In this document: positions 24,727 to 27,260 of the stretch, piece after piece
How positions within the stretch are numbered: the first letter of the stretch is position 1
How the letters are laid out: every line of letters begins with the position of its first letter
DNA from: a bacterium
GTDB taxonomy: Bacteria; Verrucomicrobiota; Kiritimatiellia; CAIKKV01; CAITUY01
Assembly (NCBI GenBank): GCA_037128595.1
Contig: JBAXWB010000007.1
Coordinates: 96,588-160,587, forward strand
Direction of reading: 5' to 3'
DNA length: 64,000 nt
Made by a program: the position numbers and the translations under genes
Notes under the pieces: generated by a model
Database searches by the model: none
Seen by the model: only the letters and a program-made list of their open reading frames with translations
What the model was told of the DNA's origin: nothing

Positions 24727-26538
24727 CTATTCAGCGACCGGGGCCCTGCTTTTCTTGCGCTTTATACCCAACCCTGATTCCGCGATCTCGCCTTTGCAGT
24801 TATCAACCATCACATCGATATCCGGACCTTTTGCCTCGTATACGATGGAACAATCGCTGAACTCACAGTTTTTGAAGTGAACCAGACGGGTGTCGCTGTC
24901 GGCAATGAAGTGCACATTTGTGAGATTGCAGTCCACGAAACTGAAATAGGTTCCCTTGATCCGCTTGACGTCGTTAAGGGTTTCGTGTTCGAACCTGAGA
25001 GGACGCGTTTCAACGGACTTCGCCGGCGTGTGGACGAAGCCGTCATTAAATCCCTTGGGATCAAATATGATAGAGAGGGTCTGGAATTTTTCGTAAAGAT
25101 TTCCCTGCATACTGGCAACGCCCGTCCGTGTCTTGAAGCCGGTGTCGCCCATGAAATGGTTCTTACGGAAGGTATAGTTGTGCGTACGGCCCCACACGTA
25201 CACATTCTTCTCGAATTGATTCCCTTCAAATATCATCTCACTCCCGGCGCAAACCACGAGGTCGCCCTTGCGGTTGTCCTTGAAGGTGTTGTTCCTGAAC
25301 ACGACATCCTGCATAAAGTCCCACCCATCTTCAAAATCGATACCACACCCCGGTGCGGTACCCCCGTTTCCTTCAAATCGGTTTTCCTCGATGAGCCATC
25401 GCTGCCCCCCGCAAAACGCGAAGCCCAACCGCCTGTTGCCCGCGAGAATGTTATGATGAAAATGCACGTCCATCGGGGGGCGGGAACTGAGAACGGCCCC
25501 GTAGAGTGAAGGAGCTTCAGGGCCTTTGGCCTCAGGCTGATTAAATTCCAAACGAACGAATTTCCCGCCTTCCGGTATCGCTGTTTTCTTAAACTGAATA
25601 CAGGATTTCTTCTGAAGGAACTTCATATCCTTGTCATAGAAGCATGCCTGATAATACCGATCCATCACCGCCGGATAACTCATATACCCGAACATGAACC
25701 CGAACTCGAGTTCCCCATTGAATTCCTCACCCGGCAGTTCATAGGGTTTTATCGTCCGCGTCTTCAGTGCATCCGGCTCCGGTACGCCGGCGTTTGAAAG
25801 GGCACCCTGTTCAAGGTTTTTCGCCATCACCTTCAGACAGCGCTTGGCGTCCTTGAACGGAAGACCGGCATTGGAACGGATGCCATCGCCGGTACAATTG
25901 GTGACGGTGACATGATCGACCTCCAAATTGACGCCTCCATCGAAGACCAGACCGCACCCCCACTCGTGCGTCCCCGGCACGGTCTTGTAGTCATGTGACT
26001 CCTTGTCCCCGCACAGTCGGCCGTTAGTAAGTCTGACATTTTCAGCCCCGTGCTCAAACCTGAAGATGGCATATTTCGGGAGCCCGTTTGGATTGATCCT
26101 GAACGTTGCCCCATTCAGGTCAATGATCATATCCTTGTTGATGATCACCACCGGGTTTGACTCGCCAATCAGGTAGGTCCCGGGCGGAAATACAATCCGA
26201 TTGGCTCCTGCCGCCTGAGCCTCCCGAAGGGCCAGGTTGATTCCTTGCGAGGTTTCAACAGGATTTGTGGCATTGCAGCTGATGTGAAATTTATCGAGGT
26301 CAATGCGGTATTCCCGGGTATGCTTCGAGTCGTCCGCCGTCGCTTTCGGGGTTTTAGTAATCGCGACCGGCGTCGCTTTCAAGTTCCCATGATAGGCCCC
26401 GTCCATTTTGCCGTTTCGGGCTTCTTCAGGCACCCACTCGTACTTGTTTTCCGAACTGAAGCAAGGATGGACGAGCACACATGCCGCCATGAGTGCTGTG
26501 ATAATGGCCTCTTTTGCTTTTTCAGGAAGGGTTAACAT
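24727..26538 (-). CDS. right-handed parallel beta-helix repeat protein (pectate-lyase-fold glycoside hydrolase / polysaccharide lyase candidate)
   Basis: Signal peptide MLTLPEKAKEAIITALMAACVLVHP (start moved to ATG 26538). Repeated NxxxxN/GxxG beta-helix rungs: HFHHNILAGNRRLGFAFCGGQ, NNTFKDNRKGDLVV, GNQFEKNVYVWG. Confidence 0.6.
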   Translation of the reverse strand: MLTLPEKAKEAIITALMAACVLVHPCFSSENKYEWVPEEARNGKMDGAYHGNLKATPVAITKTPKATADDSKHTREYRIDLDKFHISCNATNPVETSQGINLALREAQAAGANRIVFPPGTYLIGESNPVVIINKDMIIDLNGATFRINPNGLPKYAIFRFEHGAENVRLTNGRLCGDKESHDYKTVPGTHEWGCGLVFDGGVNLEVDHVTVTNCTGDGIRSNAGLPFKDAKRCLKVMAKNLEQGALSNAGVPEPDALKTRTIKPYELPGEEFNGELEFGFMFGYMSYPAVMDRYYQACFYDKDMKFLQKKSCIQFKKTAIPEGGKFVRLEFNQPEAKGPEAPSLYGAVLSSRPPMDVHFHHNILAGNRRLGFAFCGGQRWLIEENRFEGNGGTAPGCGIDFEDGWDFMQDVVFRNNTFKDNRKGDLVVCAGSEMIFEGNQFEKNVYVWGRTHNYTFRKNHFMGDTGFKTRTGVASMQGNLYEKFQTLSIIFDPKGFNDGFVHTPAKSVETRPLRFEHETLNDVKRIKGTYFSFVDCNLTNVHFIADSDTRLVHFKNCEFSDCSIVYEAKGPDIDVMVDNCKGEIAESGLGIKRKKSRAPVAE

Positions 26539-26583
26539 GCCGCTTATTCTTCCACGTCTCTTCAGGGCACACAAGACTCCCAT

Positions 26584-26609
26584 TTGTGACATGTTACGGT
26601 GAATTGTGA
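26584..26609 (+). promoter_or_regulatory. TTGTGA-N14-TTGTGA direct repeat (site c), 46 bp upstream of the beta-helix gene start
   Basis: aTTTGTGACATGTTACGgtgaATTGTGAt. Confidence 0.55.
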
Positions 26610-26625
26610 TGACCCTCGCTTTTAT

Positions 26626-26703
26626 TTGGTCGTAGACCATCCCTGCTTCGCTAAAGCTACGCAGGGCAGGCCGTAGCTCAAGCCGAACGGCGCCGAGCGA
26701 AGG
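26626..26703. repeat. copy A of a ~47-bp flank repeat (TTGGTCGTAGACCATCC ... CCGTAGCTCAAGCCGAACGGCGCCGAGCGAAGG), split by a 28-bp GC hairpin insert
   Basis: Near-identical to 27023-27070, which abuts the tRNA-Gly 3' end. The insert is CCCTGCttcgctaaagctacGCAGGG. Confidence 0.7.
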
Positions 26704-26946
26704 CTACCAAAGGTGCTTGTGCGCGAAGGCATGTCCAGATCCGGTCTTGAAATATTGCTCAAGCCGCCGGGCCTGATCTTCAGTACGTACTGCCACGTAC
26801 GTAACGATTTCCCACGGGCAAAACCTTGAAGTATAGGGGCATTCCCCGGCATTGTGGGTAATCAGTCGAGATTCAACATCCGAAGTCATTCCCACATACG
26901 TTTTATTGGGCCGAGAGATGCTTCGAATCAAATAGACAAAGTACAT
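26704..26946 (-). CDS. GIY-YIG family nuclease (stand-alone, 80 aa)
   Basis: MYFVYLIRSISRPNKTYVGMTSDVESRLITHNAGE is the canonical GIY-(x10)-YVG ... R ... HN GIY-YIG core; sits between the two copies of the flank repeat. Confidence 0.7.
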   Translation of the reverse strand: MYFVYLIRSISRPNKTYVGMTSDVESRLITHNAGECPYTSRFCPWEIVTYVAVRTEDQARRLEQYFKTGSGHAFAHKHLW

Positions 26947-27022
26947 CCTGTGATCGTGCCCTCCTACGCCCTGCGGCTTCGCCTTGTGCTTCGCAGGGCA
27001 TCCTTCGCTCGGCGCCTATGGC

Positions 27023-27070
27023 TTGGTCGTAGACCATCCGTAGCTCAAGCCGAACGGCGCCGAGCGAAGG
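27023..27070. repeat. copy B of the flank repeat, immediately 3' of tRNA-Gly; its last 15 nt (GGCGCCGAGCGAAGG) are also present inverted at 27002-27016
   Basis: Read directly; see copy A. Confidence 0.7.
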
Positions 27071-27071
27071 A

Positions 27072-27147
27072 TGGAGCGGGCGACCGGGTTCGAACCGGCG
27101 ACCATCTGCTTGGAAGGCAGAGACTCTACCAACTGAGTTACACCCGC
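27072..27147 (-). tRNA. tRNA-Gly (anticodon TCC) with encoded CCA
   Basis: Reverse complement GCGGGTG-TA-ACTC-AGTTGGTA-GAGT-C-TCTGC-CTTCCAA-GCAGA-TGGTC-GCCGG-TTCGAAC-CCGGT-CGCCCGC-T-CCA. All stems pair. Confidence 0.85.
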
Positions 27148-27260
27148 TTTGTGTGGTAAGACAGCGCTTCTTATATCAGACGCTGCTGGAAGCGTCAACA
27201 TTGTGCGCTGGACTCCAAAATCAGGCGTGGTATGATTGACCGAATATTTAGGAGAAACCC

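Follow-up and report, generated by a model that had tools for sequence, protein, structure and literature searches.

A 64-kb stretch of DNA from a bacterium of the Kiritimatiellia (64,000 nucleotides, nt; hereafter referred to as the window) carries, directly behind a tRNA-Gly gene, a small cassette that consists of a structured leader and an open reading frame (ORF) for a predicted GIY-YIG nuclease of 80 amino acid residues. The leader begins at the base that follows the tRNA CCA, its helices covary among homologous loci, and the same architecture is attached to the CCA ends of many other tRNA genes and of the genes for transfer-messenger RNA (tmRNA). The ORF is under purifying selection, the cassette of the window is missing from the corresponding site of close relatives, and repeats flank it. 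We favor, with somewhat more than even confidence, the reading that it represents a tRNA-end-targeting and recombination-mobilised cassette of an Slx1-like nuclease, expressed from the tRNA promoter. Individual loci are cited below by L numbers and individual protein entries by P numbers.

Organization of the cassette behind tRNA-Gly

Read along the minus strand, the locus runs from tRNA-Gly through a single T, a 48-nt repeat, 6 nt, the 3′ strand of the leader helix P1, a GC hairpin (hp2) and the ORF to a second, interrupted copy of the 48-mer. The features are as follows, with the evidence in parentheses.

27170-27198, minus: putative promoter, TTGACG-17 nt-TATAAG, about 22 nt upstream of the tRNA 5′ end (read from the sequence)
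27072-27147, minus: tRNA-Gly(TCC), CCA encoded (ARAGORN; Rfam tRNA model, 66.7 bits)
27072-27073, minus: CA, the last two tRNA bases, forming the opening pairs of leader helix P1 (inverted repeat)
26947-27071, minus: structured leader, from the base after CCA to the base before ATG (covariance model; fold)
27056-27073, minus: P1 5′ strand, CATCCTTCGCTCGGCGCC (inverted repeat; covariation; fold)
27023-27070, minus: proximal 48-nt repeat, equal to the 5′ half of the leader (P1 5′ strand and inner hairpin)
27017-27055, minus: P1 interior, with the conserved GGCTTGAGCTACGGATGG element and the mini-hairpin TGGTC-TAC-GACCA
26999-27016, minus: P1 3′ strand, GGCGCCGAGCGAAGGATG (inverted repeat; covariation)
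26958-26999, minus: hairpin hp2 (family consensus and covariation; fold)
26704-26946, minus: GIY-YIG nuclease gene, 80 residues, Slx1/UPF0213 type (Pfam PF01541)
26626-26703, minus: distal partial second leader, a copy of the 48-mer without the P1 3′ strand
26643-26670, minus: 28-nt insert splitting the distal copy, a canonical hp2-type GC hairpin, CCCTGCGTAGC-TTTA-GCGAAGCAGGG (fold; resembles the hp2 of L059)

A sequence-only reading of the window had described an 80-residue GIY-YIG ORF between two copies of a 47-nt repeat behind tRNA-Gly. This arrangement is present, with a repeat of 48 nt; positions 27023-27070 recur as 26626-26642 plus 26671-26703 with 100% identity. The two halves of the repeat, a 31-mer and a 17-mer, occur twice each in the 64 kb, as compared with 0.00 and 0.11 occurrences expected from shuffled sequences. 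The TAG stop codon of the ORF (26704-26706) abuts the distal copy, in which the 28-nt GC-hairpin insert was found at 26643-26670 as reported, with a possible 2-nt GG/CC duplication at the junction. The proximal copy had been said to touch the CCA directly; one base (27071) separates the CCA from the repeat as delimited in that reading. Similarly, the inverted repeat that had been proposed to form a 15-bp stem over a distance of 40 bp exists, but its arms (26999-27016 and 27056-27073) are 18 nt long, 39 nt apart and 100% complementary, the difference in length arising because the arms also take in the T after CCA and the CA of CCA itself. The extra CCCTGCG...CGCAGGG hairpins, too, are present on either side of the ORF.

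The distal partial leader gave a weak match to the covariance model described below (26639-26695, 23.6 bits). There is no recombinase gene between tRNA-Gly and the distal repeat, and no remnant of the tRNA-Gly 3′ end was noticed downstream of this repeat on reading the sequence; a repeat scan covering 350 nt on either side of the ORF returned leader sequence only. The automatic promoter scan demands a T at the end of the second hexamer and hence did not list the TATAAG site.

Database records of the locus differ in their gene calls. One NCBI record calls a 61-residue ORF from the internal Met20, losing the GIY motif (P0009), and another, on a 184-kb contig, has the full 80-residue protein (MEI6166709.1). 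The neighboring Beta_helix ORF (24727-26640, minus), as mechanically listed, begins inside the distal repeat; its true start is likely the ATG near 26538 (MLTLPEKAKE..., signal-peptide-like).

The protein is a minimal Slx1/UPF0213-type GIY-YIG domain

The window protein matched Pfam PF01541 with 46 bits (cut-off, 22.6; E=6.7e-12), and the catalytic residues Y5, Y17, G19, R27, H31, N32 and E63 were invariant in 28 sequences. The family alignment contains a C-terminal motif, KTGSGHAF, and the subfamily is marked by a distinctive KTGSGHAFAHKHLW C-terminus. In a profile search against the PDB, the UPF0213 protein BH0048 (1zg2) scored 1.7e-10 and SLX1 1e-8, as compared with 0.12 for I-TevI. The AlphaFold2 (AF2) model, with a predicted local distance difference test (pLDDT) score of 96.8, has the GIY-YIG fold, a three-stranded sheet with helices on its flanks; its top fold matches in the PDB were SLX1, At-HIGLE and UPF0213 proteins, with template modeling (TM) scores of 0.70-0.76. 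By identifier, the best sequence and fold matches were 1zg2, 1ywl, 7cq2, 6sei and 7wme. The chain stops at residue 80, with no additional domain such as RING behind it. Sequence and modeled fold thus agree in predicting a minimal, stand-alone nuclease domain of the Slx1/UPF0213 type. It is not an SLX1 orthologue in the strict sense, since it has no C-terminal RING domain and no SLX4 partner. The sequence-only reading had spoken of a homing-endonuclease-like mini-element; the enzyme is not a homing endonuclease of the I-TevI type, the domain being of a different type and not accompanied by a DNA-binding domain.

NCBIfam models gave no match to the window protein, the PADLOC defence profiles matched it with 0 families, and the PHROGs matches were weak (E ~1e-3), one of them being to a GIY-YIG homing-endonuclease family. 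The ratio of nonsynonymous to synonymous substitution rates (dN/dS) of the nuclease ORF was 0.06-0.13, which indicates strong purifying selection. Such upkeep of the ORF over long vertical descent would not be expected of a purely selfish element.

Homologous cassettes are anchored to the CCA ends of tRNA and tmRNA genes

The window protein has 46 close homologues, and the ORF homologues on other contigs share 53-85% identity with it. The first homologues lay behind tRNA-Pro, tRNA-Ser(GCT), tRNA-Ser(CGA) and tRNA-Gln in the same layout as in the window, and the sequences following the CCA of tRNA-Pro and of the two tRNA-Ser genes were 86-92% identical to the 47-mer. Relatives are encoded by 561 among the 600 matches listed for JGI metagenomes, and the family comprises 4,978 cluster representatives at E<=1e-10. 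Plasmid and phage collections contained no family members, and an exact 21-mer scan of GTDB genomes yielded two chance matches only, in Actinomycetota.

We sampled 80 metagenomic loci by the protein alone (48-78% identity) and assigned their contexts using ARAGORN and the covariance model. The leader was found upstream on the same strand in 72 of the 78 assessable loci. A same-strand tRNA and the leader directly preceded the ORF in 35 of the 80 loci, and tmRNA and the leader did so in 8; in 29 others the leader came after a tRNA- or tmRNA-like ...CCA end that was fragmentary or cut by the contig end, and a single locus had a tRNA and a decayed leader. The ORF was inverted beside the leader in two loci (L073 and L093), with a tmRNA gene preceding the leader in L073. 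Neither tRNA/tmRNA nor leader was found in three loci, and the remaining two had too little upstream sequence. For comparison, a same-strand tRNA is expected within 400 nt of a random gene in well below 1% of cases, as estimated from typical tRNA gene density. Overall, at least 15 kinds of tRNA, as well as tmRNA, have the leader immediately behind their CCA.

Several further observations concern the genes of this family and their records. The two inverted ORFs (L073, 2241-2421; L093, ~757-934) are convergent with the leader, start with GTG and have their own upstream hairpin, GGAAGTGTCCGGAATCC...GGATTCCGGACACT. In the distant COG2827-type GIY-YIG genes P0167 and P0287, the ORF starts right after a tRNA T-arm or 3′ end with no long leader, and the unit of tRNA fragment and ORF occurs as a tandem duplication that is read through as a single protein; adjacency to tRNA may thus be general for bacterial stand-alone GIY-YIG genes. 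Spurious N-terminal extensions, which are translations of hp2-like hairpins or of tRNA T-arms, occur in about half of the 150 top representatives, and many homologue contigs break inside the leader. Nearly all cassette-bearing tRNAs have CCA, ARAGORN having placed no CCA end in L022, L078, L092 and L106. The window also contains a tRNA-Leu(TAG) gene (982-1065, plus) that has no encoded CCA (...GCCCA then TTTAAT) and no leader or nuclease gene after it, and the tRNA-Leu(TAG) of L023/L024 is in the same state. In view of this difference between CCA-bearing tRNAs with the cassette and the CCA-less tRNA-Leu(TAG), one may ask if it is the cassette that provides the CCA.

A covarying leader whose helix P1 takes in the last two bases of the tRNA

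The 47-mer is the 5′ half of a conserved, structured leader of ~120 nt, the family range being ~90-130 nt from its start right after CCA. It had been regarded as a copied insertion target, an interpretation that we replace, since this segment is conserved as part of the leader across the whole cassette family. In the family, P1 is formed between the CA of CCA together with the 10-24 nt behind it and a downstream strand whose last bases are TG. A direct helix search identified such a P1, gap-free and 9-26 bp long, in 57 loci, where it opens with the CA of CCA and closes its 3′ strand with TG. Covariation is seen at the two positions that follow CA, the observed combinations being CATCC/GGATG, CATAC/GTATG, CAACC/GGTTG, CAGCC/GGCTG, CACCC/GGGTG and CATGC/GCATG. 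The hairpin hp2 directly follows P1 and has the family form CCCTCC-GNA-GC-loop-GC-GNA-GGAGGG, and it covaries both in the sixth pair of its stem (C-G, G-C, T-A) and in the pair that closes the apical loop.

The covariance model was constructed from 16 leaders of a different subtype, the window locus not being among them. It matched the leader on the sense strand in ~75 loci and the window leader at 26957-27074 (minus) with 36.8 bits (E ~1e-5). In 57 of the matches, 97.4% of the cells were paired, as compared with 81.5% in shuffles and 39-45% in slid controls, and compensatory double changes occurred in 16 of the 22 pairs (169 double-change cells versus 40.5+-5.6 in shuffles). The alignment underlying these values was fitted to the model, which favors structure, and P1 was found independently by the direct search. 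Anchoring of the P1 3′ strand on hp2 by regular expressions proved noisy from nested hairpins, and the covariance model was used instead. Among the models of Rfam 15, only those for tRNA and tmRNA matched; the leader had no match at E<=10 in the window and none at the gathering score in 20 loci.

In the window, the outer stem of hp2 is GCCCTGC/G.AGGGC and its inner stem GC..GC, with a GAA/GTA internal loop and additional sequence inside; the GGAGG of the 3′ strand precedes the ATG by 13 nt. The P1 interior element is kept in L004, L006, L009, L013, L021 and L024, and its inner helix appears in the minimum free energy (MFE) fold. The interior of P1 contains, in the family, another stretch with imperfect complementarity to the P1 5′ strand, which would thus have two alternative partners. 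In the window this stretch is the GGCTTGAGCTACGGATGG/GAGCTACGGATGG sequence, which could form an imperfect helix with CCATCC...CTC in place of the P1 3′ strand. The window leader has an MFE of -65.4 kcal/mol (z = -4.8), and the opposite strand folds equally well. Counts of G-T versus A-C mismatches favor neither strand in P1 (8 versus 9) and show a mild sense bias in hp2 (11 versus 2); the sense strand is favored by the purine-rich GNA/GNA loop.

Between orthologous loci, leader identity amounts to 76-87% and equals that of codon positions 1 and 2, as compared with 45-54% at third codon positions and ~50% in downstream spacers. These results, together with the low dN/dS, indicate that both the ORF and the leader are under selection.

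The tRNA-Gly site is polymorphic among relatives

We located the tRNA-Gly site in relatives by the neighboring AhcY gene and designate each relative by its AhcY identity. The 99% relative (L120-L122) has an intact leader, 95% identical to that of the window, followed by an ISL3-family insertion sequence (IS) within which the contig ends. In L120 the IS starts, at ~1290-1310, 5 nt before the expected GIY-YIG ATG, and it uncouples the nuclease gene, if still present, from the tRNA and leader. The 97% relative (L108) has a decayed, single 5′ half-leader and then an unrelated gene. In the 92% relative (L111-L113), tRNA-Gly is followed by a single 47-mer, identical at 45 of 49 aligned positions, and the P1 3′ strand, hp2 and the GIY-YIG ORF are absent; its homology to the window stops exactly at the 47-mer end. 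The 89% relative has no tRNA-Gly at the site.

Presence or absence of the gene at one locus in close relatives, as seen in L111-L113 and L108, which lack it, is a trait of homing-type elements. The 92% relative provides the empty site that the sequence-only reading had predicted, namely tRNA-Gly and a single 47-mer with no GIY-YIG gene; this single repeat represents either an unoccupied site or a footprint after loss. The 47-mer is not confined to this locus either, as it occurs behind tRNA-Pro and two tRNA-Ser genes. The notion of a mobile mini-element gains from the presence/absence pattern and the flanking repeats; copying of a host target and an enzyme of the I-TevI type are not supported.

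Repeats and module copies around the cassettes

Direct repeats between the upstream and downstream flanks were found in 15 of 85 loci, and the junction of tRNA end and leader start recurred downstream of the ORF, significantly as compared with shuffles, in 11 of 47 tRNA-bearing loci. Segments of the tRNA 3′ end form direct repeats at both ends of the cassette in L059, L064, L066, L071, L074, L092 and L102; the window repeat consists of leader only. In L059, L064, L066, L092 and L102, the fragment downstream of the ORF extends from the T-loop to CCA and is followed by the native flank. The DNA between the repeats consists of the leader and the ORF alone, 350-600 bp. L077 and L085 carry the complete 112-nt leader once more behind the ORF, and this further copy begins at CCTTCGC as in the window; the flanking 112-nt leaders of L077 are 100% identical, and its ORF is frameshifted. 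L013 has two copies of a unit of tRNA-Ser fragment and leader, one of them without the ORF, and L035 has stacked leaders.

A full leader with no nuclease ORF was found on two IMG/VR contigs (L155, 6943-7033; L160, 244-334; 96.8 bits), in which it follows a tRNA-Cys-like 3′ end uncalled by ARAGORN and the next gene is phosphotransferase-like. These two were the true ones among 38 loci from an IMG/VR scan with two leader patterns; the covariance model did not bear out the other 36, which probably matched by chance.

Contigs from one population can carry different numbers of modules. In the near-identical loci of the sets L004/L006/L029 and L023/L024/L027, a unit of P1 3′ strand and hp2 (~80 nt) is present once, ~1.6 times and ~2.6 times, and the copy number of a 17-nt CAGGGCGTAGTAGGGCG unit is variable inside a single lake population. 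As judged from these sequences, the leader is a hotspot for tandem duplication. A nested hairpin insert like the 28-nt one of the window is present in L073, and the L013 ORF (P0021; 11 contigs) carries at 2561-2608 a leader-like hairpin of 46-48 nt in frame, in the region from the YIG motif to the Arg helix; this insert has CC at both junctions (a possible 2-nt duplication) and leaves the reading frame open. Elsewhere in the 64-kb window no hairpin module was found, the two detected (0.18 expected by chance) both lying in the cassette. Likewise, 374 kb of unrelated loci contained none save the L155/L160 leader and a regular-expression match in L152 that was unconfirmed by the covariance model.

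A model for expression and movement

In the reading we favor, the nuclease gene would have no promoter of its own and would be transcribed together with the tRNA. Since an automatic scan of the minus strand turned up nothing resembling a promoter or a terminator from the tRNA to the ORF, we infer that the gene is read from the tRNA promoter. P1 may serve as a double-stranded processing site that frees the tRNA end and separates tRNA maturation from the mRNA, and hp2 may limit translation by occluding the ribosome-binding site. The GGAGG of hp2 lies 4-15 nt before the start codon in minimal leaders. A strict occlusion of the Shine-Dalgarno sequence was rejected as a rule for the whole family, as it suits the minimal leaders only.

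The cassette would move among tRNA genes, and be lost from them, by recombination between repeated leader/tRNA-3′-end sequences in an R-X-R arrangement; in the window, R would be the 48-mer, and X would be the P1 3′ strand, hp2 and the ORF. The route could be Campbell-type integration and excision, or break-induced copying (homing) to a target in which R is present beforehand, and the R-X-R structures appear compatible with homing by break-repair copying. The nuclease, acting on folded or branched DNA, may stimulate the recombination.

A bolder proposal, which we consider rather unlikely, is that a structure-specific nuclease of the Slx1 type recognises folded or branched DNA of the leader and tRNA 3′ end and inserts or copies its own cassette exactly at the CCA of any tRNA or tmRNA gene. 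Such DNA might form, for instance, on the displaced strand of heavily transcribed tRNA genes. If true, this would constitute a mobile element of bacteria that dispenses with transposase and integrase and finds its target by structure and not by sequence, in which the leader would be both a DNA substrate and an RNA expression control.

Several points weigh against the model of a mobile, tRNA-driven cassette. Nuclease activity, co-transcription and movement are predictions from sequence, and the 80-residue protein has no recognisable DNA-binding domain for site recognition. Co-transcription is not universal, given the inverted ORFs of L073 and L093. At many loci hp2 is situated 20-100 nt from the start codon, so that occlusion of the ribosome-binding site is a hypothesis for part of the family. 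The mismatch counts do not separate an RNA role of the fold from a single-stranded DNA role. The tRNA-Gly site would fit insertion and deletion between repeats alike, and the window carries a single cassette copy with no dispersed hairpins in 64 kb. Moreover, an intact ORF persists at one and the same tRNA-Leu locus in four diverged genomes, the synonymous divergence (dS) being >1, a persistence that suits a useful host gene better than a classical homing cycle.

Alternative explanations

This last observation leads to a host-beneficial role, which we regard as a serious rival although an unlikely one. The gene would then be a domesticated, useful Slx1-like nuclease whose dose is tied to tRNA/tmRNA transcription via the leader, with possible roles on branched DNA or R-loops at busy tRNA genes or in RNA processing; the repeats would have arisen secondarily, through hairpin-induced slippage and unequal recombination, and would not be signs of mobility. 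Such a role accords with the dN/dS of 0.06-0.13 at saturated synonymous sites in syntenic loci, with a leader as conserved as codon positions 1 and 2, with the small number of pseudogenes among the 80 loci, with the absence of members from plasmid and phage collections and with tandem module expansions that resemble slippage. A hint at RNA metabolism also comes from a documented case in which an Slx1-like domain is fused to a TrmH tRNA methyltransferase (PMC1564403). What it accounts for less readily is the position of the cassette behind at least 15 tRNA species and tmRNA, always at the same base, which requires repeated relocation. The gene is also missing at the same tRNA-Gly in close relatives, copies of tRNA 3′ ends are found downstream of the ORF and followed by the native flank, and complete leaders exist without the ORF.

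The two other explanations are weaker. That the repeats are remnants of the attachment (att) sites of tRNA-targeting integrase islands, with the cassette as cargo or mobilised in trans, seems to us improbable. The duplicated tRNA segments of L059, L064 and L092 do span the T-loop to CCA, which is the classical identity block of tRNA-targeting integrases; a tyrosine integrase adjoins the tRNA-Ser of L006, and a large serine recombinase adjoins L013 with its two copies of tRNA fragment and leader. However, most loci have no recombinase within 2 kb, as is true of the interval between tRNA and repeat in the window, the DNA between repeats is only leader and ORF (350-600 bp), and 15 different tRNA sequences are beyond one integrase. 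We assign the lowest likelihood to a system resembling repetitive extragenic palindromic (REP) sequences and their REP-associated tyrosine transposases (RAYTs), in which the hairpin modules of the hp2 and 48-mer types would be mobile and the GIY-YIG nuclease would cut folded single-stranded DNA. This idea draws on the nested hairpin inserts in the distal copy of the window and in L073, the in-frame 46-48-nt hairpin in the L013 ORF, the possible 2-nt duplications in the window and L013, the CG(A/T)AG core common to all modules and the way modules flank the gene, as REPs flank RAYT genes. Against it, the modules are confined to tRNA ends, with none elsewhere in the 64-kb window and next to none in the 374 kb of unrelated loci, chance could account for the small number of 2-nt duplications, and the nuclease is of the GIY-YIG and not of the HUH Y1 transposase type.

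Comparison with known systems

The nearest experimental precedent is SegB of phages T4/T6, a GIY-YIG homing endonuclease that is encoded in a tRNA cluster, cleaves tRNA-containing DNA and drives recombination-dependent segmental duplication and amplification of the tRNA-nuclease segment (PMC13096335). As in that system, the GIY-YIG gene described here adjoins tRNA genes of many isotypes and is accompanied by tandem or flanking duplications of tRNA ends and modules. However, SegB is a phage-borne enzyme of the I-TevI-like branch, with no conserved folded leader to join it to the CCA end, whereas the cassette enzyme is an 80-residue, Slx1/UPF0213-type protein encoded on chromosomes and not seen in phage or plasmid collections.

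Integrase islands resemble the cassette in inserting at tRNA/tmRNA 3′ ends and in having direct repeats of the T-loop-to-CCA segment, but the cassette has no recombinase, measures 0.35-0.6 kb and attaches one conserved leader to many tRNAs. Free-standing homing endonucleases have a sequence-specific DNA-binding module joined to the nuclease domain, which the cassette lacks. Among phage homing-endonuclease genes, I-TevI and mobE have a hairpin that sequesters the ribosome-binding site, with the Shine-Dalgarno sequence in its 3′ strand, just upstream of a promoter-less nuclease gene whose message comes from an upstream transcript. The hp2 of the cassette is similar in that its 3′ strand holds GGAGG close to the start codon in minimal leaders; it differs in its conserved GNA/GNA loop and its frequently larger distance from the start. 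Further parallels are the Allomyces double-hairpin elements and the yeast GC clusters of fungal mitochondria and the E. coli tyrT distal repeats; among these, small GC hairpins go with mobile nuclease ORFs and insert into genes, and the 3′ end of a gene or tRNA occurs as a second copy downstream. Those elements are organellar or confined to a single locus, are unrelated in sequence and have no CCA-anchored leader.

The protein itself resembles UPF0213/YhbQ (COG2827) and SLX1 in having a minimal GIY-YIG domain with the same catalytic residues, whereas SLX1 works with SLX4 and carries a RING domain, neither of which applies to the cassette protein. A tRNA linkage or a leader for UPF0213 proteins was found neither in the superfamily survey (PMC1564403) nor in the other literature searched. 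No description of tRNA-linked Slx1-like cassettes was found in that literature, the coverage of which was incomplete, so that a prior description is possible. The protein fold and free-standing nuclease cassettes beside tRNA genes in phages are already known; the base-exact anchoring to CCA, the covarying leader and the minimal Slx1/UPF0213 domain in such a cassette are apparently undescribed, none of them having turned up in Rfam, NCBIfam, PADLOC, the phage and plasmid collections or the literature searched.

Implications

Stand-alone GIY-YIG proteins of the UPF0213/YhbQ, Slx1-like kind are common in bacteria, and one large subfamily of them is now tied base for base to CCA ends. The linkage explains annotation artefacts such as truncated or over-extended GIY-YIG ORFs, spurious hairpin ORFs and contig breaks behind tRNA genes. 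It also defines candidate substrates for the enzyme, namely the leader RNA, the leader as folded DNA and the tRNA-end duplex, and it points to what may be a new strategy, in which tRNA genes would offer small elements safe and highly expressed landing sites.

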